Shown piece by piece: positions 4,751 through 62,848 of a stretch of 64,000 nucleotides of DNA. Made by a program: the position numbers and the translations under genes. Positions within the stretch are counted from its first letter, which is position 1; every line of letters begins with the position of its first letter. The notes below the pieces were generated by a model. It was not told the origin of the DNA and ran no database searches. It saw nothing but the letters and a program-made list of their open reading frames with translations. The stretch is from a bacterium (GTDB lineage Bacteria > RBG-13-66-14 > B26-G2 > WVWN01): positions 4,244 to 68,243 of the forward strand of contig DATKVX010000039.1 in the NCBI GenBank assembly GCA_035529855.1. Direction: 5' to 3'.

Positions 4751-4789
4751 GACAGACGTCCCGGGCGCGGCGCGACCGAGCGCGGCGCC

Positions 4790-15020: not shown

Positions 15021-17201
15021 TTACCGGACTACCAGGCGCTCGAAATCGGACCTGCCGCGCAGCGACGCGAGGTCCCCGTCCTCTGCAGCCATTTTCTTAT
15101 AACGGGCCGGCGCGAGTTCTACGGCGCGGCCTAGCTCCGCCATCGCTTCGTCGCCGCGGCCTTGCTGTGCCAGCGCGCACGCCAGGTTGTACCTCGCCCG
15201 GGGGTCTTCGCCCATCTTTAAGATAACGCGGTACTCCCGCGCCGCCGCGGCGTAGTCGCCCATTTGATGGAGGACCTCGGCCAGCCTGTGCCTGACGTCC
15301 AGGGCCTTCGGCTCGTAGTACGCCGCCTCCTCATAATAGTCGCGGGCCTGCTCGAGGTCGCCCCGGTCGCGGGTGACGTTGCCCAGCTCGTACCAGGCCG
15401 CGCTGAAGTTGGGCTGGAAGTGAACGGAACGTTCTAATTTCTCGGCGGCGCCGTCGATGTCGCCTTCCCCCAAAAGGAGTTTACCGTAGAAATAATACGC
15501 CCGGCCGTCCTCGGGCTCCAAAGTTAGCGCGCGCTCGTAGCACTCGCGCGCCCCCTCCACGTCGCCGGCCTGCGCGCGGATGTTGCCTATGTTATTCCAC
15601 GCCTTGGCGTACGTGGGTTCTACCTTGGCCACCAGCCGGAAGTAATATTCCGCCTTTTCCATATCGCCCCGCCGCGCGGCGATGATGCCGAGGTCGTTGA
15701 GCGTGTTCATGCCGGCGATTTCCCAATCCGCCTCCAGCGCCGCCTCGTACTCGCGCTCGGCGGCGTCGAAGTCGCCGTCGGCGAGGTATACCGTACCCAT
15801 CGCATAATGCCCTTGCGCCTCGAACTTCGACTGCCGGCCTATTCCGAACGGGTCCGCATCGCAGAATACGAACAGCGCCGCGAGCGCCGCGACGCGCCAA
15901 CCGATTCGTACGCCGCGCCACCGCCGCAAATTTTCCCAGAAATAGAAGAAAGCCGCGGCGGCGAAAACGCAAAAATAAGGCACGACCGGCATCCGGAAAC
16001 GCGCGTTCACGAAGAACAATATCACCGACGCCGAATAGGCGACGACATAAATATACGACGGCGCCAATTGCCGCCACCGCCGCGCATATAGAATCATTCC
16101 GAAGAAGGCGAACGGTAAAACGACGTACAGGCTCACCGGGTCGTATTTCAACACCCAGAAATGCTTTTTCAAATAATAGAGGTCGAAATTGTTCGCGACC
16201 TCGTACGCGTTCGTGAAGAAATAAGTTTTCTGCGCTAGTAACCTGAGCGCCGTCAACGGCTCCGTGCGACCGAACTCGGCTACGCGAGCCAGGTAGTAGT
16301 GATCTACTTCGGAACGGCTTAGCGGCCTGCCGACGGCCTCCTCCGCCATCCGTATCGATTCGTAATGGCCCCGCCACCAGTCGCCGTGGGTCCCCGGCAC
16401 CATCGCCGTCATACCGTCCGCTTCGGGGTTGTTGCCTATCCACAGGTTGACGCCGCCCTGCCAGGATATCAGGACCGGCTCCCGGGCGACGGCGTAGTTC
16501 CGCGCCGCCACCGCGCCCACGAACGCCCCGGCGAGGCCGTACAAGATAGCGAGCGATACGATTATACGTCGCCGCGGCAAACGCTTCCCGGCCCGGGCCG
16601 CGACGTACGCCAGCCAGATGAAGGCCGCCACCGCGAGAACGTTGGGCCTGGTTATAGCGGCCAACCCCAGCGCTACGCCCGCCGCCGCGGCCCACCGGTA
16701 ATTGCCGGTCTTCGCCGAACGCACGACGGCGTACACGAACGCGAGCCCCAGCGGGACCTCCAGCACCACCAACAACAATTCAACGTCGTAAAAGACGGCG
16801 GTCCATATCGTGCCCAGCGCGACCGCCGCTACGGCGCCCACCCGCCGGTCGAAGAACTCGCGGCCCAGGAGGAAACAAAGCCCCGCGCTTAAGCCGCCTA
16901 CGAAACCCTGCGCTACGCGCGCAAACAGGACCGACCCTTTACCCAACCAGTACAATAACCCCAAAAAGTACGGGTACAGCGGCGCCCGGAAGAAAACCTC
17001 GTCCCCCCAGAAGTCGCCGCCGGCGATGCGACGCGCCCACGCGTCGTGGTAGGACATATCCATAACGGGGGTCCGGTAGTACGCGTGGTCGCCGGCCGTC
17101 GCCAGCAAGAGCAACCGGACGGCGACGGCCCACACCACGACGCCGGCCAGTATTAACCAATCGCGCCGCGTCCAACCCTTATCCACTTCTTCCGTTACCA
17201 T
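15021..17201 (-). CDS. GT-C glycosyltransferase (ArnT/PMT-like) fused to a C-terminal TPR array, paralog 3.
   Basis: The N-terminal 480 aa or so are polytopic (...FWGDEVFFRAPLYPYFLGL...). The C-terminus carries at least 6 TPR repeats (AWNNIGNIRAQAGDVEGARECYERAL..). Confidence 0.7.
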   Translation of the reverse strand: MVTEEVDKGWTRRDWLILAGVVVWAVAVRLLLLATAGDHAYYRTPVMDMSYHDAWARRIAGGDFWGDEVFFRAPLYPYFLGLLYWLGKGSVLFARVAQGFVGGLSAGLCFLLGREFFDRRVGAVAAVALGTIWTAVFYDVELLLVVLEVPLGLAFVYAVVRSAKTGNYRWAAAAGVALGLAAITRPNVLAVAAFIWLAYVAARAGKRLPRRRIIVSLAILYGLAGAFVGAVAARNYAVAREPVLISWQGGVNLWIGNNPEADGMTAMVPGTHGDWWRGHYESIRMAEEAVGRPLSRSEVDHYYLARVAEFGRTEPLTALRLLAQKTYFFTNAYEVANNFDLYYLKKHFWVLKYDPVSLYVVLPFAFFGMILYARRWRQLAPSYIYVVAYSASVILFFVNARFRMPVVPYFCVFAAAAFFYFWENLRRWRGVRIGWRVAALAALFVFCDADPFGIGRQSKFEAQGHYAMGTVYLADGDFDAAEREYEAALEADWEIAGMNTLNDLGIIAARRGDMEKAEYYFRLVAKVEPTYAKAWNNIGNIRAQAGDVEGARECYERALTLEPEDGRAYYFYGKLLLGEGDIDGAAEKLERSVHFQPNFSAAWYELGNVTRDRGDLEQARDYYEEAAYYEPKALDVRHRLAEVLHQMGDYAAAAREYRVILKMGEDPRARYNLACALAQQGRGDEAMAELGRAVELAPARYKKMAAEDGDLASLRGRSDFERLVVR

Positions 17202-21163: not shown

Positions 21164-21985
21164 TTACCTCCTGACCTCGGCGTCTAAATACGGCTCGAGT
21201 AATGCGTACATCTCGGCGAACTCGCCCGGCGAAAAGCTCTCCGGCCTGGCGGCCGGCTCGAAGCCGGCCTCGCGGAGCTTGGAAGCCACCTCCGCCGCCG
21301 AAAGGCCGCCGCCCAGAAGGGTGGCCAGCCGATTGCCGACCTTCTTACGCCGCGCGGCGAAGACGAAGTCCACGAAGTGGCCGAAGAGCTCCGACCCCGC
21401 TAACGGGACCGCCTGCTCGTCGTAGTACCGGTACGTTACGAGGGCGGCGTCCACCTCCGGCTTCGGCTCGAAGGCATCGGCCGGTATCACGAACGCGATA
21501 TACGGTTCGCCCCGGGTTTGCATCTTTACCGACAGCGCGCCGTAAGCCTTGCCGCCGGGCGGGGCGCAGATGCGCTCGGCGACCTCTTTCTGGAGCGTAA
21601 GCACCCAGCGCTTAAGCTGCCGCCGGTGCTCGCCCAGGAGTTTAAGTATCGGCCCCGTAATATAAAAAGGGACGTTACCGACCGCCACCACGCGCCGGCC
21701 TTCCGGAATCAGCTCGGCCCAGTCAACGTCCAGGATGTCGCCGTGCACTATGGTAAGGTTGTCGTACCGGTCGAAGTCGCGCGCGGCGGCGTCTACGAAG
21801 CGCTCCTCCAATTCGACCGCTACCACTTCGCGGGCGCGCCGGACGAGGTGCTGCGTCAGCTCGCCCCGCCCCATTCCGATTTCGAGCACGCTCTCGTCGG
21901 GCGCTATCTCCGCGGCGTCGGCGATGCGCCGCAATACGTCGTTATCGACCAGGAATACCTGGCCTTTACGCACCCGCTTTACCAC
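21164..21985 (-). CDS. rsmA: 16S rRNA (adenine1518/1519-N6)-dimethyltransferase.
   Basis: KGQVFLVDNDVLRRIAD...VLEIGMGRGELT... shows the KsgA motifs. Confidence 0.85.
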   Translation of the reverse strand: MVKRVRKGQVFLVDNDVLRRIADAAEIAPDESVLEIGMGRGELTQHLVRRAREVVAVELEERFVDAAARDFDRYDNLTIVHGDILDVDWAELIPEGRRVVAVGNVPFYITGPILKLLGEHRRQLKRWVLTLQKEVAERICAPPGGKAYGALSVKMQTRGEPYIAFVIPADAFEPKPEVDAALVTYRYYDEQAVPLAGSELFGHFVDFVFAARRKKVGNRLATLLGGGLSAAEVASKLREAGFEPAARPESFSPGEFAEMYALLEPYLDAEVRR

Positions 21986-23946
21986 TTAATAAAGTAACCC
22001 GTTTCCAGCGTAAAAACCGCCGGTTTAAAACCCGGCTTATACCGCAGCGACGTCTCGACCTCGCGGCGGGCGTCGTCCTTCCGCCCGAGCTCGTGGTAAC
22101 AGTCGGCAAGCAAATAACGCGTGAAGGAATCGGTCGGCTCGAGCGCCACGGACCTCTCGAGATAGGGTACGGCGCCGGCGTAATCCTTTTTAAGGTAAAA
22201 GACGGTCCCCAAGTTATGTTGCACCTCGTGCGAACGGCGGCCTACGCGGTCGGCGAGCGTAAAATACTCTTCGGCCCGGCCCTCGTCGCGGGGGCGAAAA
22301 CGCGTATACAAATCGTAGAGGAAATTCCCCACCGTCCCCTGCGCCCAGTGGTCCAAGTACGTGGCGGGCGGGTCTACGCCGCGAATTACGTAACGGCCTA
22401 TGACGTCGGCGCGGGGAGGCGGCGAACCGCGTCGTACAACCCGGTAAACCGCGCCGTCCTTCGCGAGGCCGTAGCCCCACGACGCTACGAAATCGTACGG
22501 GTAGAGGAAATAATAATCGTGGCGTTTGTCCGAGAGAACGTCGCTCATAATTTCGTAGAAATATTTGACTATTACGTTGACCGGCGCGTGCGACAGGTCC
22601 CGGCCGCCGAAGTCGAAGACGTCGAAATAATTCGCGTTACCCGTGGTATCGACGAAGAAAATGTCGGGCCGCGCGTACTCCAACGTCGTCAACGCCTGTA
22701 TGCCGGTCGTAGCCGCCGAGTTCTCCTCGCCCAGGAAAACGAAGTCGCCGTACCCTACCGGACGTAAGTAATTCGCCCCGAAATCCCGGACGTACGGGTA
22801 GTAAGTCCTGTCCGCCTGGTAAAAGCGCGTAAGCACGGGCGACAGAGCGACGACCGCCGCCGGCGCCAAAAAGACGTAAGCCGCAGCCCGTCGCCATTTG
22901 GCCAACGCCTCGCCGACCCGCGTTACCGCGACGCCGGCGCATATCGCCGTCAACATGTAGAACGGGAAGTACCACGCCCGAAAGCCGAAAGACGGGTAGT
23001 TGACGATGAGGATCAACGTGAAGAAAGAGATGCCGACGAAATACAGGAAATAGCCCCGGCGCCGCCACGCCAGCCAAGCCGCGCCGACCGCGGCCGCGCC
23101 TATACCCACCCACCGGAATTGGTCCAAATATAACCACGCCGCGGTCTTGGCGCGCCACCCGACTACCGCCCAGGGCGCGCTGAACATCTGGCTCTGGAAC
23201 TCCTTACAGGTTAAATGGAAGTACAAGCCGTACAGGGTGCGCGGCTTGCCCCAATTCTGGACGACGCCGGCCGCGGACCGCACCGGCAGGTAAAGATAAG
23301 TGGACATCGCGAGCAGCCACAACGCCGCCGCTACGTAGAGGTGGCGGGGGCGAAGGCCGGCGGCGCGCCGCTGCCAAACGACGAACGCCGCGTACGGAAT
23401 CAAGAGGACCACTTGCTGGGGATGGTTGGTGCAAGCTATACCGAACGCGAAGGCCGCGGCGTAAAACCACCTGACGTCGGCGCGGCGGCGCCACGCGAAA
23501 AGCGCGAGCATCGTCGCCGCCGTGAGCGCCATGTTCATCGTGTAAACTTCGCACGTCGTGGATTGAATCCAAACCGTAGGGGCCACCGAATACGCGAGGC
23601 CCGCGACGGCCGCGCCCACCGAAGTAGCCCAACCGCCGTCCGCTATTTCGTAAACCAGCAGAACGACGAAAAAGGCCGTAGCCGCGCCCGCGACCGCCGA
23701 AAAGAGGTTCATCCCCACGATGGGGGTTACCCCGGGCAGCATCGCGAAGAGATAACACGCTAAATGCCACCCCGGGAACCCCGGCGGCACGCCGCTGCCG
23801 AGGAGGCCGACGGAACGGTTGAACAGGCCCGAGTCCTGCCAGAAGACGTCGCCGCACAGCGTTTTGGCGTATACGACGAACGCCGCCAAAGCGACCGCCG
23901 CGGCTACGTAGAAACGCTCGCCGGGCAAGGGGAATCTAGCTTTCAT
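21979..23946 (-). CDS. DUF2723 (TMEM260-like) polytopic membrane protein with C-terminal TPR repeats; putative protein glycosyltransferase.
   Basis: The N-terminal 400 aa or so are polytopic (...DVFWQDSGLF...CTNHPQQVVLL...). The C-terminus has TPR repeats (HNLGTVFYLKKDYAGAVPYLERSVALEP..). Confidence 0.6.
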   Translation of the reverse strand: MKARFPLPGERFYVAAAVALAAFVVYAKTLCGDVFWQDSGLFNRSVGLLGSGVPPGFPGWHLACYLFAMLPGVTPIVGMNLFSAVAGAATAFFVVLLVYEIADGGWATSVGAAVAGLAYSVAPTVWIQSTTCEVYTMNMALTAATMLALFAWRRRADVRWFYAAAFAFGIACTNHPQQVVLLIPYAAFVVWQRRAAGLRPRHLYVAAALWLLAMSTYLYLPVRSAAGVVQNWGKPRTLYGLYFHLTCKEFQSQMFSAPWAVVGWRAKTAAWLYLDQFRWVGIGAAAVGAAWLAWRRRGYFLYFVGISFFTLILIVNYPSFGFRAWYFPFYMLTAICAGVAVTRVGEALAKWRRAAAYVFLAPAAVVALSPVLTRFYQADRTYYPYVRDFGANYLRPVGYGDFVFLGEENSAATTGIQALTTLEYARPDIFFVDTTGNANYFDVFDFGGRDLSHAPVNVIVKYFYEIMSDVLSDKRHDYYFLYPYDFVASWGYGLAKDGAVYRVVRRGSPPPRADVIGRYVIRGVDPPATYLDHWAQGTVGNFLYDLYTRFRPRDEGRAEEYFTLADRVGRRSHEVQHNLGTVFYLKKDYAGAVPYLERSVALEPTDSFTRYLLADCYHELGRKDDARREVETSLRYKPGFKPAVFTLETGYFIKW

Positions 23947-25538: not shown

Positions 25539-26963
25539 TTGGACGCTAAAAAAACCGTAGCCGCGGCCGTATTGGCCGTCATCTTCGTACTCGCCGTCGC
25601 GCAGATCTGGTACCGCCCGGTCGACCGCGACGAGGGTTTCTGGCTCTATACTTCGTGGCGCTTCGCGGAAGGCGACCTTCCCTACCGCGACTTCGCCCTG
25701 CCGCACATGCCGCTCGCGTCGCTCTACTACGCCGGCGCAATAAAGGTCTTCGGGCCTTCGCTCTACGCGCTGCGCGGTTTGAACGTCGCGCTGTTCGCCG
25801 TCTCCGCGGCCTTCCTCGGCTTAGCGGTCGCGCGGCGCTTCGGCGGGCCGGCGTCGTTCTTCGCCGTCGTCTTTCTCGGTTCGTCGTCGCTCGCGCTTAC
25901 CTGGCTCGTCCCGGTCAAGGCGTACGCGCCGGCTGCGGCCGCTTTAACTTTCGCCGTCGCCGTCTGGCTCTGGCCCGGCGATATCGAGAAAACGGGTTTA
26001 GGCCGGGCGCTGGTCATAGGCGTCTTGCTGGGCGCGGCCACGCTGGCGCGGCTAACGGTCGCGGTAACCCTCCCGGCCGCGGCCTTCGGCATTTGGCTCT
26101 CGCTACCCCGGCGGCCGGGCCGGCGGGCGGCCGCCGTCGGCGCGCTATGCATCGGCTTCTTGGCCGTAACGCCGATAATCGTCTACTTCCGCGCCGTCGC
26201 GGGGGACGCGTTCGCTTTTAACGTTTGGGGCATACACAAGCTGTTCCTGGGGGGCGGCGCGACGGGGCGATGGGCCGCGGCGTTGAGTCTCCTGCTGCCG
26301 CCGGACCCGGCGATTCTAATCGTCGCCGCGTTTCTGGCGCTTCGAGCGGAGGGGCGTAAAATTTTAGCGTTCCCCCTCGCCGCCGGCGTCCTCATCCTCC
26401 TCGGCCACCTCGTACCCGGCAGCAGCCAACGCCAATACTTCGTACCGGCGGTACCCGCCTTCGCCGCCGCCGCGGGCGTCGGCGCGGCGTGGTTATGGCG
26501 CCGGAAAAAGGCCGTCGCGCTGGCGGTGGTGGGCGCCGCGGCCTTCGTCGGCGCCGCCCGACCGGCCGCCAAGGTCGTGTTCGACCGGGCGCACAAAGAG
26601 CTCGTCGGCCCGGCGGAAGTGTACGCCGCGGCCCGCCTACTGGCCGACGCCACGCGTGAAAGCGACGTCGTGTACACCGGTTGGCCCGGCTACGCCGCCC
26701 TCGCCCGGCGGCGGGTATTGCCGGGTTGGGAGCTCGGCTACTTCACGCACCGCGTCGGCGAAAGGCTGAACGCCGCGGACCGCCGCCGCTACCACTTGAT
26801 GACGTACGACGAAACGGCGGAGGTACTCGCCTCCGGCAAAGCCCGGTTCGCGCTCGACGGCCTGGACACGCCCGAGGCGCTCGAGCCGACCTTAGCCGAA
26901 CACTTCGAAAAAGCGACTTCCCGCCGGGGCGTAACGCTTCGGCGATACAAAGCCGGCGAATAA
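25539..26963 (+). CDS. GT-C glycosyltransferase (ArnT/PMT-like), paralog 4.
   Basis: YRPVDRDEGFWLYTSWRF is the acidic DE motif near TM1. About 11 TM helices plus a C-terminal domain. Confidence 0.65.
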   Translation: MDAKKTVAAAVLAVIFVLAVAQIWYRPVDRDEGFWLYTSWRFAEGDLPYRDFALPHMPLASLYYAGAIKVFGPSLYALRGLNVALFAVSAAFLGLAVARRFGGPASFFAVVFLGSSSLALTWLVPVKAYAPAAAALTFAVAVWLWPGDIEKTGLGRALVIGVLLGAATLARLTVAVTLPAAAFGIWLSLPRRPGRRAAAVGALCIGFLAVTPIIVYFRAVAGDAFAFNVWGIHKLFLGGGATGRWAAALSLLLPPDPAILIVAAFLALRAEGRKILAFPLAAGVLILLGHLVPGSSQRQYFVPAVPAFAAAAGVGAAWLWRRKKAVALAVVGAAAFVGAARPAAKVVFDRAHKELVGPAEVYAAARLLADATRESDVVYTGWPGYAALARRRVLPGWELGYFTHRVGERLNAADRRRYHLMTYDETAEVLASGKARFALDGLDTPEALEPTLAEHFEKATSRRGVTLRRYKAGE

Positions 26964-36571: not shown

Positions 36572-36973
36572 TTATTTTACGACGACGAGCTCGACGTCGG
36601 CGACGCCGGCGCCGAGCATTTTAATTTTTTTGGCGGCGGCGTACGACAAATCGATTATGCGGCCGGCGACGAAGGGCCCGCGGTCGTTGACGCGCACGAC
36701 GACGCTCTTCTTATTGGCTAAATTGGTAACGCGGACGTTGGTCCCGAACGGCAGCGTCTTGTGGGCCGCCGTGTAGGCGTTCATATTGAACTTCTCGCCG
36801 GAGGCGGTGGCCTTCCCGTGGGCCTCGCGGCCGTAATACGAAGCCTCGCCTACTTCGCGATAGGCGGCGGGTCGGCCGTAACTGCGCGGATAGCGCCTGG
36901 AGAAGCTGCAAGCCGAAACCGCCAACGCCGCACACAGCGCGGCCGATATGCCGTATCTAGCCGCGGCCTTCAC
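36572..36973 (-). CDS. rlpA: RlpA-like lytic transglycosylase (DPBB domain) lipoprotein.
   Basis: [58 protein letters not shown]. Confidence 0.8.
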
Positions 36974-36985
36974 TTCGAAACTCCG

Positions 36986-37366
36986 CTACCGGCCTTCTCT
37001 TTTTCGCTCCGCCGACACCGCGTCGACGTACGCGCATATAGCCGCACGGCAGGCCTCGTCTACCCTGGTGAAATGTACCGCCGCGGCGAACGACCAATCC
37101 GGCTTATCCGCCTTCTCTTCGACGCGGACGATGACGCCGGCGCACCGGAAGGATAGCTCCCCCGCCTTTCCTACGGGCGGTAATGACACCATGAGCGATA
37201 CCTCCGTGAACTCGGTGAGCTTCTTCTCGGTATAGAAATAGATACCGGAGCCGGATATATTCCGGGTTCGGAGGTAGACCTTGTCCCCGGAGGTCGTCTC
37301 TAAAACGCCCTTATAGTCGACCGCGGCGCGGGGGTACCGGCGGCGTTCGATAAAGGTATCATTCAT
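36986..37366 (-). CDS. PilZ-domain protein, a putative c-di-GMP receptor.
   Basis: The RRRYPR ... NISGSG motifs match RxxxR and DxSxxG. A strong GGAGGAGG RBS precedes the MNDTF start. Confidence 0.65.
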   Translation of the reverse strand: MNDTFIERRRYPRAAVDYKGVLETTSGDKVYLRTRNISGSGIYFYTEKKLTEFTEVSLMVSLPPVGKAGELSFRCAGVIVRVEEKADKPDWSFAAAVHFTRVDEACRAAICAYVDAVSAERKREGR

Positions 37367-38402
37367 AGCCTCCTCCCTTTTCGGCATATGCGGCCTCCGT
37401 TTGGATTTCCTCCGCCTTCGCTAACTCGGCGATGGTCAGGTGTTCCGTCCAAAGGTAGACTAGGCCGATCCCAACCGCGGGCAGGACCTGGACGAGGTGG
37501 ACGACGATGGCATACGACAACCCCTCGTTACGCGTGAGGGCCGGCTCGATAATGTGGAGCGCGGCCAATACGCCCAGCTCCATCGTTCCGATGAAGCCCG
37601 GCGACGACGGTATGGATATCGCGAGGCTGACGATAGCGACGAGTAGGAGCGGCGCGTAGAGCGGCAACGTCGACGTAAACTTAAACCCGAGGTTCACGAA
37701 ATAGTACGACAACGCCACGAGCAACCAGATCGCACCCGAGTAGAGGAACGCTTTCCCCAAATCCGCCGGGCTCCGGAAGCAGCTGAAGCCGTGGGTGAAC
37801 TTATCCAACGAGCGGACGATCTTAATGGCGAGCCTTTTCGAGAACGGCGCGAAAATAAACTTGATGATGGAAGTCGCCGCGTCCCGGTTGAAATAGAATA
37901 ACACGAAGAAGCTCACGATGGCGGCGTAAATTATGAAGCCGGTAGTACCGCCGGCCTTGAAGCCCGCGATTTTAGCCGGTATCAATATCGCGAAGCCGCC
38001 CAATATTAGGAACAGGATGGCGCCGTCCAACAGGCGCGTAACGATGACGGAGCCGAAGGCGGTCCCTTTCGACAACCGCTGCTTACGGGCCAGGATGTAC
38101 GCCCGCACGACTTCGCCCAACCTCGCCGGCAGCAGCGTATTGGCCAAAAACCCCAGCATCGTGATGCGGAAAAGGGGATAGGCCGGCAGCCGCCGGATGC
38201 CGCCCAGAACGTACCGCCACTGCAGCGCCCGGCAGTAATAGGAAGCCACGACGCAACAGGTAGCGGGAATTAAATATAAATAGTTGAACCGCGCGAGGGT
38301 CGCCGCGAACTCGCGCCAGTCGATGACCACCGCCAGGAAAATCGCCGAGGCCAGGCTGACGCCTAGTCCCAATAAGATGCGCGTTCTTTTGGTAATCTTC
38401 AC
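37359..38402 (-). CDS. Flippase-like membrane protein (lysylphosphatidylglycerol-synthase TM-region family, UPF0104).
   Basis: 8 TM helices. YCRALQWRYVLGG...LGFLANTLLPARLGEVVRAYIL is typical of this family, which often partners polyprenyl-P-sugar synthases. Confidence 0.6.
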   Translation of the reverse strand: MKITKRTRILLGLGVSLASAIFLAVVIDWREFAATLARFNYLYLIPATCCVVASYYCRALQWRYVLGGIRRLPAYPLFRITMLGFLANTLLPARLGEVVRAYILARKQRLSKGTAFGSVIVTRLLDGAILFLILGGFAILIPAKIAGFKAGGTTGFIIYAAIVSFFVLFYFNRDAATSIIKFIFAPFSKRLAIKIVRSLDKFTHGFSCFRSPADLGKAFLYSGAIWLLVALSYYFVNLGFKFTSTLPLYAPLLLVAIVSLAISIPSSPGFIGTMELGVLAALHIIEPALTRNEGLSYAIVVHLVQVLPAVGIGLVYLWTEHLTIAELAKAEEIQTEAAYAEKGGGYE

Positions 38403-38421
38403 GCCCGGCGGCCGGCCTGGG

Positions 38422-39309
38422 TCATTTTACGACGTATAAAATGATGAAGACGACCGCCACGTACAGCAAGATGTTCACCTGCAGCGGCCGGTCGGTGATT
38501 AGAATCGCGGAGGGTCGCGCGCCCTTACCCTTCTTGTACATGAGGTAGAGGTAACGGAATATCCCGTAGACCACGAACGGGATGGTGTATATCATTTTAT
38601 TGGTGCCCAAACGCGCGACCGTACCCGGCCAAATGGTGTAGAGGGAATAGGACATCACCGACGACGCCGTCGTGACGCCTATCATTTCGTCGATTAACTT
38701 GGGGGAATAGGAGGCCAGTATCGGGCGGTAGTCCGCCGCGTTCTCCGAGAGGTCCGTAATTTCGCCGCGCCGCTTCGAGAACGCCAAAAACAGCGCCAGG
38801 AAGAAGGTGCATATAAGCAGCCACTCCGATAGTTGGCCCGGCTCGGAAACTATGGCGTAGATGCCGGCGATGGCTCGCAACACGAAACCCAACGCTATGG
38901 CCAAGGAATCGACGATCACGACCCTCTTTACGCCGAACGAGTACGAGAGGTTGATGACGAAGTACGTCACCGCGCATAGGCCGAACTTCCAGCCCAACCA
39001 CCAGAACGAAGGCGCGAGCGACGCCGCGGCAAAGGCCGCGAACAATAAGACGCCGGCGAGCGGAGAAACCCGGCCCGAAGCTATGGGCCGGTTTCTCTTC
39101 TCCGGGTGCCGTCGGTCGTACCGCGCGTCTAAGACGTCGTTTAGAATATAAACGCTGCTCGAGAGAAAACAGAATAAAACGAACCCCAGTACGGCGTGAA
39201 ACGCGTCCGCCAATATCAACGCGCGGCCCGAAAAAACCACCGCTACGAAGACGATAAGGTTCTTCGTCCACTGCCGGGGCCTCATTAATTTTACGATTGC
39301 CGCTATCAT
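38422..39309 (-). CDS. UbiA-family prenyltransferase, decaprenyl-phosphate 5-phosphoribosyltransferase-like (Rv3806c/DPPR-synthase-type).
   Basis: YILNDVLDARYDRRHPEKRNRP carries the NDxxDxxxD motif. 8-9 TM helices. Confidence 0.65.
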   Translation of the reverse strand: MIAAIVKLMRPRQWTKNLIVFVAVVFSGRALILADAFHAVLGFVLFCFLSSSVYILNDVLDARYDRRHPEKRNRPIASGRVSPLAGVLLFAAFAAASLAPSFWWLGWKFGLCAVTYFVINLSYSFGVKRVVIVDSLAIALGFVLRAIAGIYAIVSEPGQLSEWLLICTFFLALFLAFSKRRGEITDLSENAADYRPILASYSPKLIDEMIGVTTASSVMSYSLYTIWPGTVARLGTNKMIYTIPFVVYGIFRYLYLMYKKGKGARPSAILITDRPLQVNILLYVAVVFIILYVVK

Positions 39310-39336
39310 TAAACGGACTCCGCTCGTTTGAAGCGA

Positions 39337-40356
39337 TTATAATTGATAACGGCCGACATCGCAATCACTTTCCGAACCGTCGGGGTCGTAATACCACAAC
39401 AGCAGCTTCGTCGCGCGGTACGTGACCCACCGCGACGCGCGGCCCGCGCGGACCGGCTTAAGCCAGCACGGCTCGCCGAACGGTACCTGCTGCCGCCAGA
39501 AGCCGCGTCGCGTCTGCAGCTCGCGGACGGCCCGGGCGAGGGGCGCGACCTCGAGCCGGGACGCCCCCGCCGCCGCCAACCCCGACGCCACCGTAAGCGC
39601 GTCGTACCGATATTGCGGCCAGCTCAGCCGCCGCCAAGGCCGGCTCGAGCGCGGGAAGCGGCCGTTGTAGTCCGTAAATAGGTTCCCGAGAAGGCACCCT
39701 CTCCCCGTCGCGAGGGTCCTGTCGTCGCGGCCGGCGCCGCCGGCCAGCGCGCGAAGGACCTCGGCCGTCGTACCCGCCGTGCTCGGCGCCGCGTCCCCGT
39801 CCACCTCGAATTCGTCGGCCCAGCCGCCGTCGTGACGTTGGCGTCCTCGCAGCCACGCCCGCACAGGCGCCAACGCCGCGTCGTCGACGCCCCACGCCGC
39901 GAGCGAGCTTACGGCCAGCGCATTACCCGCGACGAACGGGCCGCCCGGGCCCAGCTCGAAGAAACCGTCCGCCGTCCGCCGCGCGAGTACGGCCTCCGCC
40001 GCCCGCGCCGCTACCGGCTCGTTCAAACCGATACCCAAGTCCGCGAGGACCGACAGCTGCCAAACAGCGCCCAGGTACTTCGGTACGTACAAACTAGGGC
40101 GCCGTTGAAAAAAGGGCCCCGGCGCGTACCACAGGCCGTCCGGGGCCTGCGCATCCGCTACGGCGGCCAGGTTCGGGTCCTCGTACCGCCGTTCCCACAA
40201 GGCCGCCGCCTCGACGCAATCGGCCGGCCACTTCAGGAGGTCCACCGCGGCGCGGTACCTGACGAGCGGCGACCGCGCCTTCAAGAGCCAACGCGCCGGG
40301 TCGGCCCGAAAATTCGATGCCAAGTTTTTAGGGAGGTTTTGGGGCCGGGTCGCCAC
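39337..40356 (-). CDS. Prenyltransferase/squalene-oxidase-repeat (alpha-alpha toroid) protein.
   Basis: QxxDGGW-type repeats are present, e.g. RGRQRHDGGWADEF and APDGLWYAPG. Confidence 0.45.
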   Translation of the reverse strand: MATRPQNLPKNLASNFRADPARWLLKARSPLVRYRAAVDLLKWPADCVEAAALWERRYEDPNLAAVADAQAPDGLWYAPGPFFQRRPSLYVPKYLGAVWQLSVLADLGIGLNEPVAARAAEAVLARRTADGFFELGPGGPFVAGNALAVSSLAAWGVDDAALAPVRAWLRGRQRHDGGWADEFEVDGDAAPSTAGTTAEVLRALAGGAGRDDRTLATGRGCLLGNLFTDYNGRFPRSSRPWRRLSWPQYRYDALTVASGLAAAGASRLEVAPLARAVRELQTRRGFWRQQVPFGEPCWLKPVRAGRASRWVTYRATKLLLWYYDPDGSESDCDVGRYQL

Positions 40357-40359
40357 GGC

Positions 40360-41616
40360 TTAGAAAACCGAGATTACTACCATGGCGATGGATAACGCCG
40401 TTAAGACCACGGCCGTAACGCCCGAAATGATATTTTGTAACGGCTTGTTCACGTACTCCCCCATCAAGCGCCGGTCGTTTACCAACACGAGCATGAAGAA
40501 GATTACCGCCGGGAGGGCGACGCCGTTCACGACCTGCGACCAGTACATTATCTTGAAGAGCGGCGCGCCGGGCCATAGCACCGCCAAGGCCCCCACCGCC
40601 AAGATGGCGGTGTAGAGCGCGTAGAACCCGGGCGCCTCCGCGAACTTCTTGTCGACGCCCGCCTCCCAGCCGAACGCCTCCGATATGAAGAACGCCGTCG
40701 CGAGCGGCAGGATGGACGCCGCGAAGAGCGACGCGTTCAAAAGGCCGAAGCCGAACAAGACCGACGCGTATCGCCCGGCGAGCGGTTTGAGCGCCAACGC
40801 CGCGTCGACGGCGTCGCTTATCACGATACCCTGCGGGAACAACGTCGCGCCGCATACGACGACGATAAAGAACGCGACCACGCTCACTACCACCGAGCCG
40901 ATGACGACGTCCCATCTTGAAAGGCGGTATTCCGAGATCTTTACGCCCTTTTCGACGACCGCCGCCTGGAGGTAGAACTGCATCCACGGCGCGACCGTCG
41001 TCCCCACCAGGCCGACCAGCATCGCCAGGTACGCCCCGTCCCAGGATATCTCGGGGGCCGCGACGCTCGCCGCTACCTCGCGCCACGCCGGCCTGGCGAT
41101 GAACCCGGCCACGACGTACGAGACGTACACCAGGCACGCTACCAGGAAGACCTTCTCGACGCGTTTATAATCCCACTTGACGACGAGCAGCCACAACGCG
41201 GCCGCCGCCACCGGCACCGAGACGTACTTGCTGACGCCGACTATCCCCAGGCTGGCCGCGACCCCCGCGAACTCCGCGACGGTGTTGCCGAGGTTGACGA
41301 CCAACATCGCAAACATCAAATAAAAAGTGACGCGTACGCCGAAGCGCTCGCGGATGAGGTCCGACAAACCCTTGCCCGTTACGACGCCCATCCTGAGGCC
41401 CATCTCCTGGACGACTATAAGGAAAACCGTAATGGGGATGAACGCCCACAACATGGCGTAGCCGAAACGCGCGCCGCAGATGGAATACGTCGCGATGCCG
41501 CCGGCGTCGTTATCCACGTTCGACGTGATGATGCCCGGGCCGAGCAGCGCCAGAAAGAGCGCGAAGCCCTTAACGCGCGGCGTAAGCCAGGTGCGCGGTT
41601 TGAAGTTAAGAGCCAA
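40360..41616 (-). CDS. mntH: NRAMP-family divalent metal (Mn2+/Fe2+) transporter.
   Basis: GPGIITSNVDNDAGGIATYS and MLWAFIPITVFLIVVQEMGLRMGVVTGKGL are NRAMP consensus motifs. Confidence 0.85.
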   Translation of the reverse strand: MALNFKPRTWLTPRVKGFALFLALLGPGIITSNVDNDAGGIATYSICGARFGYAMLWAFIPITVFLIVVQEMGLRMGVVTGKGLSDLIRERFGVRVTFYLMFAMLVVNLGNTVAEFAGVAASLGIVGVSKYVSVPVAAAALWLLVVKWDYKRVEKVFLVACLVYVSYVVAGFIARPAWREVAASVAAPEISWDGAYLAMLVGLVGTTVAPWMQFYLQAAVVEKGVKISEYRLSRWDVVIGSVVVSVVAFFIVVVCGATLFPQGIVISDAVDAALALKPLAGRYASVLFGFGLLNASLFAASILPLATAFFISEAFGWEAGVDKKFAEAPGFYALYTAILAVGALAVLWPGAPLFKIMYWSQVVNGVALPAVIFFMLVLVNDRRLMGEYVNKPLQNIISGVTAVVLTALSIAMVVISVF

Positions 41617-41617
41617 C

Positions 41618-42880
41618 CTACTCCTTCTCGAAATCCGGATACATCGCCGCCACGGCGTCGTACAGCGTTACGACGCCCTTGAGCTTGCCGTCGTCGTCTA
41701 CCACCGGCAGCGTCGCGAAGCCGTACTTCCCGAAAAGCTCGAAGACGCGCTCGGGCCGGTCATCTAATTTCGCCGCGACCACCCGTTCGCTCGCGAGCTC
41801 GGCCGCGGGGGTCGTGCGCTTCGCCGACAGCGCGTCGCGCAACGAGAAGACGCCCACCAAAACGTCGTCGTCGTTAACCACGTACACGTAACTGTACGCC
41901 TCGACGTCCTCCGACGCCTTAATCCGTTTGAACGCGGCCGCCACCGTTTCGTCCGGTTTCACGGCCACGTACTCCGTCGTCATTATGGAACCGGCGGTCC
42001 CCTCCTCGTGGTCCAGCAGCTCGCGCAGGTCGTCGGCGAGCTCCGCGTCCTCCATCGCGCCGATGAGCTTCTGGGCCTGCGTTTCGTCCAGCTCGGCCAG
42101 CACGTCCGCCGCCTCGTCGGGGTCCATCTCCTCGATGATGTCGCCCGCGCGTTCCTCGCCCACCGTCTCGAGCAGGTCGACCGCCAACTCGGGCTCGTCG
42201 ACCTCCTCCAATATCTCGGCCGCTTTCTCGTCGTCGAAGGCGGCGAAGACGGCCGCGCGCTCGGGTTGCGGCAGCTCCTCGATGATGTCGGCCAGGTCGG
42301 CGGGGTGCAGCCGGCTCAGCCGCTGGCCGGCGACGTTGAGCTGCAAAGGGCTCCCTACCAGCTGCTCGCCGAGGGGCTGGACGTAGCGCCAATTGACGAA
42401 CCGCTCTTTGACGGTGTAATCGAACAACCACGTCGTAACGGCGTCGAAGGGCCGCAGTACGTTCAGCCGCCGCAGTATCCCCCGCACGCCGACGTCGGCG
42501 TGGATTACGCGTAAATCGCGGTTCGTATTCAACAAGTGGATATCGTTAACGCGTTCCACTTTGGCGCCGTTCATGTCTACGACCTGCTTGTCCCACAAGT
42601 CCGCCACCAGCAGCACCTCGCCCAGGCGCCGCTCGAACCGTTCGAACAAGGCCGGCTCGCCCTCGCGGAGGAATACGCCGTCGCGTTCCATACGGCCTAT
42701 CGCTTCCCACGGGACCCTGACCTTGCCGCGCGGCCGCCGTTGCCGGCATACGAAGTAGCCGACGCGGGGATATTGCTCGCGGCCGTCCGCCGCGCAATCG
42801 ACGACTTCACCGAGCCGCCGCCCGTCGGACGCGCGCAGCGCCTTGCCGATTATGTCGGTCATAAATATGAAGACGTCCAT
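41618..42880 (-). CDS. Cytoplasmic MgtE_N + CBS-pair protein with an N-terminal PRC-barrel-like domain. It has no TM pore.
   Basis: The acidic MgtE_N helix bundle is LADIIEELPQPERAAVF...DLLETVGEERAGDIIEEMDPDEAADVL. Tandem CBS domains follow. Common upstream partner of mntH. Confidence 0.65.
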   Translation of the reverse strand: MDVFIFMTDIIGKALRASDGRRLGEVVDCAADGREQYPRVGYFVCRQRRPRGKVRVPWEAIGRMERDGVFLREGEPALFERFERRLGEVLLVADLWDKQVVDMNGAKVERVNDIHLLNTNRDLRVIHADVGVRGILRRLNVLRPFDAVTTWLFDYTVKERFVNWRYVQPLGEQLVGSPLQLNVAGQRLSRLHPADLADIIEELPQPERAAVFAAFDDEKAAEILEEVDEPELAVDLLETVGEERAGDIIEEMDPDEAADVLAELDETQAQKLIGAMEDAELADDLRELLDHEEGTAGSIMTTEYVAVKPDETVAAAFKRIKASEDVEAYSYVYVVNDDDVLVGVFSLRDALSAKRTTPAAELASERVVAAKLDDRPERVFELFGKYGFATLPVVDDDGKLKGVVTLYDAVAAMYPDFEKE

Positions 42881-59853: not shown

Positions 59854-60798
59854 TTACATCTTTTCTGAAATCAAATAAATAATTGCGTTTAGCCACATAA
59901 TATTCAATTTTCTATTAGTGGTATTAGAGGCGTTATGGTTAAAATAGGAATAGAATAGATTCCAATAATCCTTATCCCATTTTAGTAACCAAGCAGCATC
60001 GTACGTTCCGTGACCTAAATTTTCTTCATCGGTTAAATGATAAAACTTGAAGAGTACTTCGGGTTCGCCTCTAATAAAAGAATTAGGTATATCTTCGTGG
60101 GATTTAATAATCCGCGAGCCGTACGAACCTTCTTCTCCGGGTAATTCTACTCTACCCACCTTTTTACAAATCGGGTGATTGTAATCGAAAGGGTTGACCT
60201 CAACCGTTACGTAAGGTTTATCGAAATGACCTACTTCTCCAAAAAAGTGTAAATCGTGGGTACATACGGCGCTACCGCCCCCGCTTAAATAAGTCTTTAA
60301 TGCGTTTTCTATATCCACCCTTCTATCGTAAATTCCGTAACCAGTGGGGCAATGCTCGTCCGTATAATGTCGATTGTCACCAATTCCAAAGATGCAATCA
60401 TATTCGTTATTTATCTGGCCGACCGCATTTAAGAATTCGACCCGGAAAAACGGGCTAAAAAAATCCCGGAAATGATCTATGTAACTATTATGGCAAATCA
60501 CCAATAGCCTGGGCTTGAATTTCTTATTAACTTTTTTAGGATAGGGTAAAGGCAAGAGCCTTAAGACTTTTTTTTTGTCGTTGTCGGGTGCGGAAATAGT
60601 CGATATAAAGGTTAGAATAACCGCTAAAACCGGTCCTATTATAGTCGCCAACGCTACTATTTTATCTCCCTCAAAATCGAAAACCGCCAAAATTCCTATA
60701 GAAATTACTAAGATAAAAAGGCTTATATAGGTAACGAAAAGAACCCGTCCATACCTTCGATTTAGGTATTTAGTAACCCAATAAAACCCTATTTCCAT
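59854..60798 (-). CDS. Hypothetical 2-TM membrane protein from the AT-rich island; possible PLC-like phosphodiesterase (weak motif-level hint).
   Basis: The N-terminal helices are VLFVTYISLFILVISIGILAV and IVALATIIGPVLAVILTFI. The downstream domain carries LLVICHNSYIDHF, resembling the PI-PLC X-box 'sHNsY'. A second His lies about 50 aa later (NRHYTDEH). RBS GGGAG. AT-rich. Confidence 0.45.
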   Translation of the reverse strand: MEIGFYWVTKYLNRRYGRVLFVTYISLFILVISIGILAVFDFEGDKIVALATIIGPVLAVILTFISTISAPDNDKKKVLRLLPLPYPKKVNKKFKPRLLVICHNSYIDHFRDFFSPFFRVEFLNAVGQINNEYDCIFGIGDNRHYTDEHCPTGYGIYDRRVDIENALKTYLSGGGSAVCTHDLHFFGEVGHFDKPYVTVEVNPFDYNHPICKKVGRVELPGEEGSYGSRIIKSHEDIPNSFIRGEPEVLFKFYHLTDEENLGHGTYDAAWLLKWDKDYWNLFYSYFNHNASNTTNRKLNIMWLNAIIYLISEKM

Positions 60799-60860
60799 CT
60801 CATTCGCTCCCGCGGTCGTAGGTCGCAGCGGTCTATGTGTTGGATTGTTTTTTCAATTTA

Positions 60861-61469
60861 TTAATAATTATCGTCTATGAAATTTCCGAGGGCCGCCAAT
60901 ATCTCCTCAATAGAAAGGTTGTTTGGAGCTTGGCGTGCCGCCCACCTGCGCCCAGGATGGACGGTATCCCATAACGAACGTTGCTGCTTGCGCCTACCGC
61001 CCCCCGGGTCGTGGAGGCCAAAGCCATCCAAGTATAAATTCCATACGGGCCTAGTCGAAGTTATGACGAGCGTTTCACCCAAAGGTATCCATATATCGTC
61101 CGCAATTAAGTACCTACAACGAAAATCGGATAAATCCAAATTTTCTGCTTGGTTTATAGATTCGCCGTGCTCTCGCAAACGGTTATATAATGCGTTACCC
61201 GGCGGTTCGTCTAAACGCAGTATACCCCTCCGCGATCCCGGCGGTATTGCTTTCCCAACGTATATAGGTAGTCCCCATCTATCATCGGCGTTCCTATCAG
61301 CAATGCGCGAATAATAACCCAAAGGGCCTATATAATAAATGGCGTAAATACCCGCGCCTTCGAAAGAACTCCCGGGGGGTAAATTAGTAACGCCCCTTTC
61401 GAAAAGGGCTTCCTTTAAGCTTTTCCCAAGATTAGCTTTATCCAAAGGGTTATAAGGTTTCTCGTTCAT
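60861..61469 (-). CDS. GIY-YIG type II restriction endonuclease, Eco29kI/NgoMIII-family-like.
   Basis: GAGIYAIYYIGP...LPIYVGKAIPPG form GIY...YVG motifs. I also recall (from memory, with no database access) that NLDLSDFRCRY and WDTVHPGRRWA resemble conserved blocks in Eco29kI-family enzymes, which cut CCGCGG. The start overlaps the MTase stop by 4 bp. Confidence 0.55.
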   Translation of the reverse strand: MNEKPYNPLDKANLGKSLKEALFERGVTNLPPGSSFEGAGIYAIYYIGPLGYYSRIADRNADDRWGLPIYVGKAIPPGSRRGILRLDEPPGNALYNRLREHGESINQAENLDLSDFRCRYLIADDIWIPLGETLVITSTRPVWNLYLDGFGLHDPGGGRRKQQRSLWDTVHPGRRWAARQAPNNLSIEEILAALGNFIDDNY

Positions 61470-62848
61470 AAACCCGGTTTTTCCACTACGACCGCGGCGT
61501 CGTAAAGGCTACGTTTTTCGCCGTTACCGTACCTTACCGTTGAGTCCGTAATACTCGAACCGACACGTTTATCTCTAATAATGTACGTACCGACGAACTT
61601 TAACCCGTGTTCGCGAGCGATTTCCCCGAATAATCGGTCTACTTCAATTTCAATACCTTGGATTACGGAATTACCTATAACTATTACTGCACTCCCGCCG
61701 GTTTTCAATACCCTACTTACGATCTCCCAGAAAACGTAGGTATCGTTAAAATACGAAGCCACGTAGTTCGCCCACCCCGAGCCGCCGTAAACGCCGGCTT
61801 CCTTACGGGTTTCCTTTAATTCCGATAGAATCGCCCGTAATTCCTCATACTCGAACGTCAAAGGAACGTCTTCCAGGCCCCGGACTTCTTGCCAGTATTT
61901 ACCGAAATTCCCGGTTTCCAGCCCCTTTTGTTCATCAGGTTTCGAAACGAAAGACAACCAATATAATTGAGGTCTCGTATTTCTTACGTAATGGTAGTTA
62001 TTCAAATAAGGCGGGGACGTTATTAATAAATCTACAGAATTATCCTCGACCGTATGGTGGTCGGAAAGGAAATTAGCATGCCTTATCCTAGCATCCCCTA
62101 AACTTTCTGGCCTTTTTATCAGCCCCTTTACGGATATTATATCATCCAACATCTCTCGACATTTCCCGGACAATACCCGCGCAAAATCAGCGTCCTTCAT
62201 TGCCGGTTTCCCGGCACTCCTGCGCGTCCCCAAACTAGGCTCGTAGGAATAATTCGAAACGCCGACCATCACCGAGCCGAAGGCGATGCGGAATAAGTCC
62301 TTTATAAGACCGTCATCTATTCTATCGATATAATCTAACGCGTGTAGTACTTGTTTTTCTATACGGGGGCTAAAAAACGGTTCTTTAGTTTTCAAAGGGG
62401 GTTTTTCGATATTGGGGGCCGGCGTACTACGCCATTTAGAGGAAAGGTCCTCTAATTCTAATACCCTAGATCTAAGCGCCTCGATATTTACGGAAAGGCA
62501 TCTCGCTTTTGTACTAGCCGCTAATGAAGCGTAAGGGTTAATATCGAAACCTACGGCGTCGTAGCCCCTCACGACCGCTTGAAATATCGTCGTTCCGACG
62601 CCGGCAAACGGGTCTAAAATAACGGGCGTTTCCGTTTCAACGTCCGATTGAAGGTACAAATCGAAAACGCTATCGACGAAGCCTGCCGAAAACCCGGCGA
62701 TCCAAGGGACCCAGCGGTGTATAGGGGACTTTTTATTTTCAAAAAAAGCCGGGTCTTTTAAACCGTTATTCGTTTTCGGACTAACCCTATTCGAGAAAAG
62801 AACTCGCTGATAACTATCGCGGATTTTTTGTTGGTCTAATCGCGGCAT
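61466..62848 (-). CDS. DNA amino-methyltransferase (N4-C or N6-A, PF01555-like) with motif I (DPFAGVGTT) placed before motif IV (TSPPY).
   Basis: DPFAGVGTT at about aa 80 and LLITSPPYLNNYHY at about aa 270, counting from M18. A GAGGAG RBS precedes the ATG at 62846-62848; the ORF-track start is an upstream TTG. AT-rich. Confidence 0.65.
   Translation of the reverse strand: MPRLDQQKIRDSYQRVLFSNRVSPKTNNGLKDPAFFENKKSPIHRWVPWIAGFSAGFVDSVFDLYLQSDVETETPVILDPFAGVGTTIFQAVVRGYDAVGFDINPYASLAASTKARCLSVNIEALRSRVLELEDLSSKWRSTPAPNIEKPPLKTKEPFFSPRIEKQVLHALDYIDRIDDGLIKDLFRIAFGSVMVGVSNYSYEPSLGTRRSAGKPAMKDADFARVLSGKCREMLDDIISVKGLIKRPESLGDARIRHANFLSDHHTVEDNSVDLLITSPPYLNNYHYVRNTRPQLYWLSFVSKPDEQKGLETGNFGKYWQEVRGLEDVPLTFEYEELRAILSELKETRKEAGVYGGSGWANYVASYFNDTYVFWEIVSRVLKTGGSAVIVIGNSVIQGIEIEVDRLFGEIAREHGLKFVGTYIIRDKRVGSSITDSTVRYGNGEKRSLYDAAVVVEKPGL

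Follow-up and report, generated by a model that had tools for sequence, protein, structure and literature searches.

A conserved four-gene module in an uncultured Coatesbacteria-type genome predicted to supply a lipid-linked ribose donor

Which of the genes around a UbiA-family membrane enzyme of an uncultured bacterium belong with it, and what would they make together? The question is raised by a 64 kb stretch of DNA (hereafter the window) from an uncultured Coatesbacteria-type genome, in which the gene for such an enzyme lies within a co-directional, tightly spaced array of seven genes on the minus strand (36572-42880; Table 1). A preliminary description of this DNA had likened the enzyme to the mycobacterial phosphoribosyltransferase Rv3806c and joined it with a flippase-like protein, an alpha-toroid protein and five GT-C glycosyltransferases into a lipid-linked sugar system. 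The window was analysed through its open reading frames (ORFs) by Pfam, NCBIfam, BLASTP, tblastn and PDB searches, and AlphaFold2 models were compared to the PDB with Foldseek. All ORFs named at this locus are present on the minus strand where they had been placed, their domain calls were confirmed by Pfam and NCBIfam, and their third-position GC content (0.75-0.79) is typical for coding sequence. We propose, with somewhat more confidence than doubt, that an operon of four of these genes makes and flips a lipid-linked ribose for decoration of the cell envelope.

Profile scores bear on the identity of the enzyme. Against NCBIfam NF008977, the equivalog model for decaprenyl-phosphate phosphoribosyltransferase, the UbiA-family protein (hereafter UbiA) scored 256.5 bits (cut-off 234), whereas the models for quinone, heme-O and chlorophyll (ChlG) prenyltransferases gave at most 34 bits (heme-O synthase 34, UbiA 30-31). 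A sequence search of the PDB returned only two entries, both of Rv3806c, matched over the full length at 32.6% identity (E 2.4e-31). The AlphaFold2 model was all-helical (predicted local distance difference test score, pLDDT, 86.8), and its top Foldseek match was Rv3806c (8j8j; template modelling (TM) score 0.84, root mean square deviation 3.0 Å, E 1e-11), with the Archaeoglobus UbiA as runner-up (AfUbiA; TM score 0.72, E 6e-7) and archaeal lipid synthases at 0.67 or less.

The residues of Rv3806c that contact phosphoribosyl pyrophosphate (PRPP) and Mg2+ have been listed from its cryo-EM structure (PMC10994848). Nine of these 12 contacts are identical in the window protein (R22, K28, Y70, N73, D77, K87, R90, Y138 and K143 in Rv3806c numbering), two are conservatively changed and one is lost. 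The NDxxDxxxD motif reads NDVLDARYD (residues 57-65), and all seven residues of the Mg2+/pyrophosphate site are identical (N57, D61, R10, K71, R74, Y123 and K128 of the window protein) and invariant across 16 homologs. Among the phosphoribose residues, K28 and Y70 are retained as K16 and Y54, while Q135 and Y157 are conservatively replaced by N120 and F142, the latter a change that also occurs in some mycobacteria (PMC10994848); K208 is not conserved (P196), with the adjacent R207 kept as R195. Because phosphoribose-binding residues are absent from true prenyltransferases (PMC10994848) and are conserved here, PRPP is favoured as the donor. Taken together, these comparisons indicate that UbiA is very probably a PPPRS/DPPRS-type enzyme, converting PRPP and polyprenyl phosphate into polyprenyl-phosphate-ribose-5-phosphate. 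The resemblance to Rv3806c drawn in the preliminary description has therefore held: by profile scores, PDB matches, Foldseek and contact residues the protein groups with Rv3806c-type phosphoribosyltransferases and not with menaquinone, ubiquinone or heme-O prenyltransferases.

The family to which the enzyme adds a new member is known and already annotated. An identical protein in a metagenome-assembled genome (MAG) carries the NCBI name 'decaprenyl-phosphate phosphoribosyltransferase', and an 82%-identical copy is encoded on a complete Candidatus Coatesbacteria chromosome. The family is large, with 7955 of 8000 scored candidates at E ≤ 1e-10 and at least 587 relatives among 600 listed pattern matches in species-representative genomes; phyla with relatives include Acidobacteriota, Chloroflexota, Planctomycetota, Ignavibacteria and Firmicutes.

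The limits of the unit around this enzyme were then defined by synteny. In close Coatesbacteria relatives (69-100% UbiA identity) the entire neighbourhood is retained, which makes them uninformative in this respect; more distant contigs are informative. The gene order UbiA, LPG_synthase_TM (the flippase-like protein), PilZ and DPBB (the RlpA-like protein) was found in four contexts: in Coatesbacteria, in locus L006 (55% UbiA identity), where a WYL gene is inserted before the DPBB gene, the toroid gene is missing and unrelated genes stand upstream, in L171 (57% UbiA identity), where both flanks have changed, and in L172/L173, where the flanks differ again and the UbiA, flippase-like, PilZ and RlpA-like proteins are 55, 48, 38 and 73% identical to those of the window. 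Within the module the genes overlap or stand 1-20 nucleotides apart; in the window the gaps from toroid through UbiA, flippase-like and PilZ to RlpA-like gene are 27, 19, -29 and 12 nucleotides. Because the order is conserved in four flanking contexts, the four genes are likely to be the functional unit, an operon running from 39309 down to 36572 on the minus strand. The preliminary description had noted PilZ and rlpA genes just downstream; their position is correct, but they are conserved members of every module instance rather than bystanders. At L006, five tandem paralogous ORFs of about 236-247 residues without a Pfam match lie directly upstream of the module (2741-6510, minus strand), together with a 792-residue ORF that is also without a family.

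About 27 nucleotides before the start codon of UbiA, within the final codons of the toroid gene, there is a promoter-like sigma-70 site (TTGCGA-17-TATAAT; Table 1). It matches 10 of 12 consensus positions, and both hexamers are kept in L009 (82% UbiA identity) and L005 (69%) despite diverged flanking sequence. Its -35 box falls on the codons for E-(S/R)-D-C, residues conserved at the C terminus across the toroid family, and this apparent protein motif may reflect a constraint at the DNA level.

The alpha-toroid protein had been counted as part of the lipid-linked donor cluster; it is instead a lineage-specific neighbour outside the conserved unit. Its family is narrow (53 database matches, all Coatesbacteria-like), homologs with 48% (complete genome CP070755.1) and 42% identity (JAAENR01) are not beside UbiA, and the gene is absent from the module loci L006, L171 and L172. 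At the locus itself, 3 nucleotides separate its start from the NRAMP gene, and between its coding body and UbiA stands the promoter-like site. The AlphaFold2 model is an alpha/alpha toroid (pLDDT 83.8) for which the PDB offered nothing closer than class II terpene cyclases and complement thioester domains (TM score 0.45-0.49, 13-18% identity), and no DxDD or DDxxD motif, transmembrane segment or signal peptide was found in the protein. The gene is judged to be a neighbour because deeper relatives have it away from UbiA and the other module loci lack it, and its lineage restriction and lack of DxDD likewise ruled it out as a pathway member.

The same observations bear on a different view of the enzyme, in which UbiA would be a conventional prenyltransferase or terpenoid enzyme and, together with the terpene-cyclase-like toroid protein, would serve a membrane pathway for terpenoids. 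Pfam matches to UbiA and SQHop_cyclase_C do stand side by side, and PGAP names relatives of the toroid 'terpene cyclase/mutase family'. However, the quinone, heme-O and chlorophyll models reach at most 34 bits against 256 for the phosphoribosyltransferase model, the enzyme has the identical or conservatively replaced phosphoribose residues that prenyltransferases lack, and the toroid is neither equipped with DxDD nor syntenic with UbiA in deeper relatives. This view is largely refuted, and we give it next to no weight.

In contrast to the toroid gene, the flippase-like gene directly follows UbiA in every module instance, and its designation as a partner of UbiA was borne out by this conserved adjacency. 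The protein matches PF03706 over profile positions 1-302 of 302 and TIGR00374 with 66.8 bits (cut-off 43.2), and about seven hydrophobic segments are predicted. Module flippase-like proteins form a separate orthologous group, 47-91% identical among themselves and at most 36% identical to anything else, and this group was found only with UbiA in every context examined. No MATE, SMR or GtrA gene is present within the window, and the UPF0104 flippase-like gene occupies the flippase position; here and below, negative results for flippases, GT-C enzymes, phosphatases and epimerases refer to the ORFs of the 64 kb window. UPF0104/COG0392 proteins (the MprF flippase domain, 'PplT') have been proposed as flippase partners of lipid head-group-modifying enzymes (PMC5898192, PMC12713373), with MprF, archaeal AglD and Pseudomonas aeruginosa GpgSDF as examples and with conserved neighbourhoods that include PMT/STT3-like GT-C genes (PMC5898192, PMC12713373, 10.1101/2022.03.11.483950). 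In this literature the flippase activity of stand-alone members is a prediction (PMC5898192, PMC12713373), and a pairing of UPF0104 with a phosphoribosyltransferase is not mentioned (PMC5898192, PMC12713373, 10.1101/2022.03.11.483950). Because of the conserved adjacency to UbiA and the family precedent, the protein may flip the lipid-linked pentose, a role for which we consider the chances evenly balanced.

Neighbourhoods were surveyed at 84 non-redundant UbiA loci. The commonest neighbours were NAD-dependent sugar epimerase/dehydratases (15 loci), GHMP kinases (15), DUF362 proteins (14), a four-helix SMR/EamA protein of about 118 residues with ArnF as its best match (7), LPG_synthase_TM (5) and PRPP synthetase (5). 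ArnF is a subunit of the undecaprenyl-phosphate-aminoarabinose flippase. At the Brevibacillus reuszeri DSM 9887 (L086, 8001-11398) and Pelosinus MAG (L027, 8001-11366) loci, UbiA is followed by an ArnF-like SMR protein and then by an 11- or 12-helix protein; several polytopic UbiA neighbours, the latter proteins among them, matched no Pfam family. These two loci are candidates for a classical three-component pentofuranose system in cultivable Firmicutes. Different transporter families directly after the enzyme in different lineages form the pattern that would be expected from non-orthologous flippase replacement, and the pairing of UbiA with the flippase-like protein is specific to the Coatesbacteria-related lineage. 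As a separate observation, in many phyla the gene immediately after the PPPRS-like one encodes a DUF362 protein (e.g. L045 1786-2928, L017, L036 and L037), and the GHMP kinases found at the same downstream position in 15 loci are mevalonate-kinase-like or IspE-like, with PRPP synthetase nearby in five.

The converse survey covered 79 distant stand-alone UPF0104 loci from metagenomes (25-35% identity, found with the flippase profile). Their neighbours included PMT_2/NHL GT-C enzymes (10 loci), GT4 (7), DUF2298 (6) and GT2 (6), and these neighbourhoods support a general role for stand-alone UPF0104 proteins in lipid-linked glycan pathways. At L091, L123, L131 and others, UPF0104 genes were seen beside PMT_2-NHL fusions and genes for TMEM260-like, DUF2298, GT2/GT4 and amine-oxidase-like flavoproteins.

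The remaining two genes of the module encode a putative receptor and a lipoprotein. The PilZ gene overlaps the flippase-like gene by 29 nucleotides and follows it in all module instances. Its product contains motifs of the RxxxR and (D/N)xSxxG types (RRYPR at residue 16, NISGSG at residue 43), RRxYPR and NxSxxG are invariant in five PilZ orthologs, and with these binding motifs intact the protein is a predicted receptor of cyclic di-GMP (c-di-GMP). The RlpA-like gene comes last, downstream of PilZ in all instances (52-79% identity). Its product exceeds the TIGR00413 cut-off of 82 bits by a wide margin (Table 1), has the lipobox VSAC and is without the SPOR domain typical of the septal form, its 133 residues corresponding roughly to the DPBB domain alone.

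A transferase for the predicted donor was sought among the GT-C genes. The preliminary description had invoked five GT-C paralogs, and five PMT_2-type GT-C ORFs are indeed present in the window, but not as a paralogous or dedicated set. Their membrane domains show no significant pairwise BLASTP similarity, so that they are not recent paralogs and a dedicated paralogous acceptor set was ruled out, and all stand at least 9.6 kb from the operon, the distance at which the closest gene ends. Linkage was observed in related loci: at L172 (3476-5398) and L173 (3435-5357), a 640-residue PMT_2 GT-C on the minus strand lies 0.7 kb upstream of the module in divergent orientation, and at L171 its ortholog lies 5.6 kb upstream. 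We regard the L172/L173 protein as the best candidate transferase partner of the module. In the Brocadiaceae locus L069, a PMT_2/TPR gene lies 11 nucleotides downstream of the UbiA homolog, and its product is homologous to the PMT_2 and TPR protein encoded at 15021-17201 of the window (26% identity, E 2e-18); when the window GT-Cs were used as jackhmmer queries on every ORF of the 84 UbiA loci, L069 alone gave a match. The 15021-17201 protein is thus a candidate user of the lipid-linked pentose, encoded at a distance from the operon. The product of 9318-10970, the sole window GT-C with detectable similarity to the L172/L173 enzyme (E 4.5e-5, a weak match), is a second and weaker such candidate. 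Because linkage is seen in related loci only, use of the donor by a PMT_2-type GT-C is a step that could be argued for or against with equal conviction.

Regarding the chemistry of the donor, no HAD or PAP2 phosphatase was found among the window ORFs, nor by tblastn with the HAD protein of L055, and UbiA carries no extra domain. For DprE1/DprE2, 47 window proteins were scanned for FAD_binding_4-type and SDR families and no such ORF was detected; likewise, the SDR epimerase common beside UbiA in other phyla had no tblastn match in the window. In view of this lack of an epimerase in the window, the product is more likely to be ribofuranose than arabinofuranose, and an arabinose product (decaprenyl-phosphate-arabinose) is not supported. 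With no DprE1/DprE2, PAP2 or HAD gene in the 64 kb, the earlier claim of a complete donor and transferase system with a decaprenyl-phosphate-arabinose-like product could not be sustained. The fuller version of that claim, in which toroid, UbiA and flippase constitute such a pathway feeding five GT-C paralogs and unique outside Corynebacterineae, has in its favour the Rv3806c-like enzyme, the five GT-C genes within the same 64 kb and the isoprenoid-enzyme-like fold of the toroid. It is contradicted by the toroid being neither conserved with UbiA nor provided with the class II cyclase DxDD, by the lack of Emb/Aft-type GT-Cs as well as of DprE1/DprE2 and PAP2 in the window, by the dispersal and dissimilarity of the GT-Cs and by equivalent systems published outside Corynebacterineae, and we consider it very improbable.

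The missing phosphatase raises the further possibility that polyprenyl-phosphate-ribose-5-phosphate stays phosphorylated and is flipped or used as such, for instance as primer or donor for a phosphate-containing polymer near peptidoglycan. No phosphatase gene is part of the module in any of its four contexts, the RlpA-like lipoprotein is always present, and MprF-type flippases handle charged head groups. Against this, every characterised pathway dephosphorylates first (PMC11127046), there is no positive sign of such a polymer, and in another Coatesbacteria MAG (B130_G9, L055 5674-8550) a HAD hydrolase gene adjoins UbiA (46% identical to the window protein) in the arrangement GT4, HAD, UbiA, which corresponds, in the form of separate genes, to the HAD-UbiA fusion of Citrobacter discussed below. 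Retention of the 5-phosphate is therefore improbable in our judgement, and dephosphorylation is kept in the proposed scheme.

We propose the following mechanism. UbiA would transfer 5-phosphoribose from PRPP to polyprenyl phosphate at the cytoplasmic face, giving polyprenyl-phosphate-ribofuranose-5-phosphate, an activity suggested by homology and the active site. A phosphatase, none being found in the window, would be encoded elsewhere and remove the 5-phosphate, after which the stand-alone MprF-type (UPF0104/PplT) protein, judging by adjacency and family precedent, would move the lipid-linked pentose to the periplasmic leaflet. There, a PMT_2-type GT-C, encoded by an unlinked gene in this genome, would transfer the pentofuranose to an envelope acceptor. 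The RlpA-like lipoprotein would point to the peptidoglycan or periplasmic glycan layer as the site of action, and the PilZ protein, translationally coupled to the flippase-like gene, would put donor supply under c-di-GMP control; that PilZ confers such control we suggest only tentatively, with rather more doubt than belief. A stronger statement, that the operon is a c-di-GMP-gated switch for envelope pentofuranosylation with its target at or near peptidoglycan and with PilZ binding c-di-GMP and, by acting on the flippase-like protein or the phosphoribosyltransferase, switching export of the polyprenyl-phosphate-ribose donor on or off, is speculative and on present evidence rather unlikely.

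Several observations weigh against a dedicated pathway of this kind. The lineages that carry the module may be related, in which case part of the synteny would be inherited rather than selected, and the operon promoter is a consensus match only. In this genome, the operon neither contains nor adjoins a gene for a phosphatase, epimerase or GT-C. Searches of the PDB with the flippase-like protein and with a six-sequence profile gave no match to MprF and only spurious matches to APC1, and we know of no UPF0104 protein shown to flip a polyprenyl-phosphate-sugar. Among the 84 UbiA loci, the flippase-like gene adjoins UbiA only in three, all of the module lineage (L005, L006 and L009); two Chloroflexia loci have it on the opposite strand at a distance of about 3 kb, and the other 79 lack it. 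None of the 79 distant UPF0104 loci has UbiA nearby.

These points lend themselves to an alternative in which the phosphoribosyltransferase is real but the other gene products of the operon act on something else. In that case the substrate of the UPF0104 protein would be a phospholipid or a different glycolipid, PilZ and RlpA would contribute to the envelope or to division in a general way, and flipping of the ribose lipid would be left to an unlinked SMR, GtrA or MATE protein. Besides the rarity of the pairing on both sides of the survey, it is favoured by the pairing of the UbiA clade with ArnF-like SMR proteins in other phyla and by UPF0104/PplT proteins being near-universal and proposed as general phospholipid translocators (preprint 10.1101/2022.03.11.483950). 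However, the four genes keep their order, with gaps of 1-20 nucleotides or overlaps, while both flanks change; the module flippase-like proteins are an orthologous group of their own, met only with UbiA in the contexts examined; and the window holds no alternative flippase gene. We consider this alternative unlikely, although it deserves to be kept in view, and continue to prefer the reading in which the operon both makes and flips the lipid-linked ribose.

If correct, the preferred reading would extend PRPP-derived lipid-linked pentose donors into an uncultured phylum, and no fewer than three unrelated families (MATE, SMR and MprF-type) could then provide the flippase of three-component systems. 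UPF0104/PplT, a large and functionally vague family, would gain a concrete candidate substrate, and it would be suggested that c-di-GMP can act on the supply of donor to regulate the decoration of surface glycans. Should the switch also prove true, it would provide the first UPF0104 protein tied to a polyprenyl-phosphate-pentose and the first second-messenger control of lipid-linked sugar donor supply. Rv3806c-like enzymes were very widespread in our scan, and Brevibacillus reuszeri and Pelosinus are cultivable Firmicutes in which a classical three-gene version could be tested.

Table 1. Features of the 64 kb window discussed in the text.
Feature	Position	Strand	Evidence or remarks
MgtE_N/CBS protein	41618-42880	minus	
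NRAMP transporter	40360-41616	minus	
Alpha/alpha-toroid protein, 339 residues	39337-40356	minus	SQHop_cyclase_C 28 bits, just over cut-off
Promoter-like sigma-70 site	39336-39364	minus	
UbiA-family protein, 295 residues	38422-39309	minus	PF01040 90.7 bits
LPG_synthase_TM flippase-like protein, 347 residues	37359-38402	minus	PF03706 145.8 bits
PilZ protein, 133 residues, single-domain	36986-37387	minus	PF07238 34.8 bits
RlpA-like DPBB lipoprotein, 133 residues	36572-36973	minus	TIGR00413 152.6 bits, DPBB_1 99.5 bits
PMT_2-type GT-C	3170-4750		
PMT_2/ArnT-like GT-C, 550 residues	9318-10970	plus	PMT_2 77.9 bits, weak ArnT and Agl23 matches
PMT_2 + TPR GT-C, 726 residues	15021-17201	minus	PMT_2, TPR domains
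PMT_2-type GT-C	21979-23946		
PMT_2-type GT-C	25539-26963		
Sensor histidine kinase, 1561 residues	44729-49414	plus	Seven GAF domains and PAS
Low-GC island	59854-62899	minus	GC 0.44 (about 0.63 in window)
ORF, 314 residues, unannotated	59854-60798	minus	N-terminal hydrophobic region
Eco29kI-type restriction endonuclease	60861-61469	minus	
N6/N4 DNA methylase	61466-62899	minus	

Other features of the window stand apart from the module. The first gene of the array encodes a PRC-barrel, MgtE_N and CBS protein without the MgtE membrane domain and stops 1 nucleotide before the NRAMP gene, which suggests a soluble Mg2+/nucleotide-sensing regulator coupled to the divalent-metal transporter. The large GAF/PAS sensor histidine kinase gene adjoins an aldehyde dehydrogenase gene in all Coatesbacteria relatives examined. 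The low-GC island, comprising the restriction endonuclease, the methylase and the unannotated ORF, probably represents a type II restriction-modification system gained by horizontal transfer. Scans for Rfam families and tRNA genes gave no match anywhere in the window.

How does the module compare with known systems? Kelly et al. (PNAS 2024, PMC11127046) showed that Citrobacter youngae adds alpha-ribofuranose or xylofuranose to its O antigen by three components. The first, a polyprenyl-phosphoribose synthase resembling Rv3806c (31% identity), is fused to a HAD phosphatase; the others are a MATE flippase and a GT-C enzyme that founded family GT136. Three-component systems were proposed to be common in Gram-negatives, with pilin arabinosylation in P. 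aeruginosa cited as a further case (PMC11127046). The preliminary description regarded such a system as undescribed beyond Corynebacterineae, a view that is outdated given this biochemically demonstrated pathway and the pilin arabinosylation (PMC11127046). The window resembles the Citrobacter O1/O2 locus (ORF15-ORF14-ORF12) in its Rv3806c-like UbiA-fold entry enzyme (32.6% identity to Rv3806c, compared with 31% for ORF15C) and in the predicted logic of cytoplasmic polyprenyl-phosphate-pentose synthesis, flipping and periplasmic GT-C transfer; in the related module loci L172/L173, a GT-C gene is also close by. The window differs in that no HAD phosphatase is fused or adjacent, the candidate flippase is UPF0104/PplT and not MATE, the GT-C is unlinked and of PMT_2 type rather than GT136, and the operon lies outside any O-antigen locus; nor do known three-component systems contain the PilZ and RlpA-like genes present here.

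The mycobacterial decaprenyl-phosphate-arabinose pathway shares a homologous first enzyme with a conserved PRPP/Mg2+ site, but counterparts of its later steps (Rv3807c, DprE1/DprE2, Rv3789 and Emb/Aft) are missing, as no PAP2, DprE1/DprE2, GtrA/SMR flippase or Emb/Aft protein was found in the window. MprF, AglD, GpgSDF and Clostridioides difficile HexSDF are similar in that a head-group enzyme stands beside, or is fused with, an MprF-type domain thought to export its product; the partner in those systems is an aminoacyl-phosphatidylglycerol synthase or a GT-A/GT-B glycosyltransferase, whereas here it is a UbiA-fold phosphoribosyltransferase. BcsA and Alg44 are PilZ-regulated envelope polysaccharide machines. 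As in these, the genes for a PilZ domain bearing canonical RxxxR and D/NxSxxG motifs and for membrane machinery of glycan biosynthesis go together, but the PilZ domain of the module is predicted as a separate 133-residue protein beside a putative donor/flippase module and not beside a processive synthase. The locus can be placed, as a variant, among the three-component systems for pentofuranose glycosylation known from Gram-negatives; what is new is the conserved combination, in an uncultured phylum, of the phosphoribosyltransferase with an MprF-type flippase-like protein, a PilZ receptor and an RlpA-like lipoprotein.

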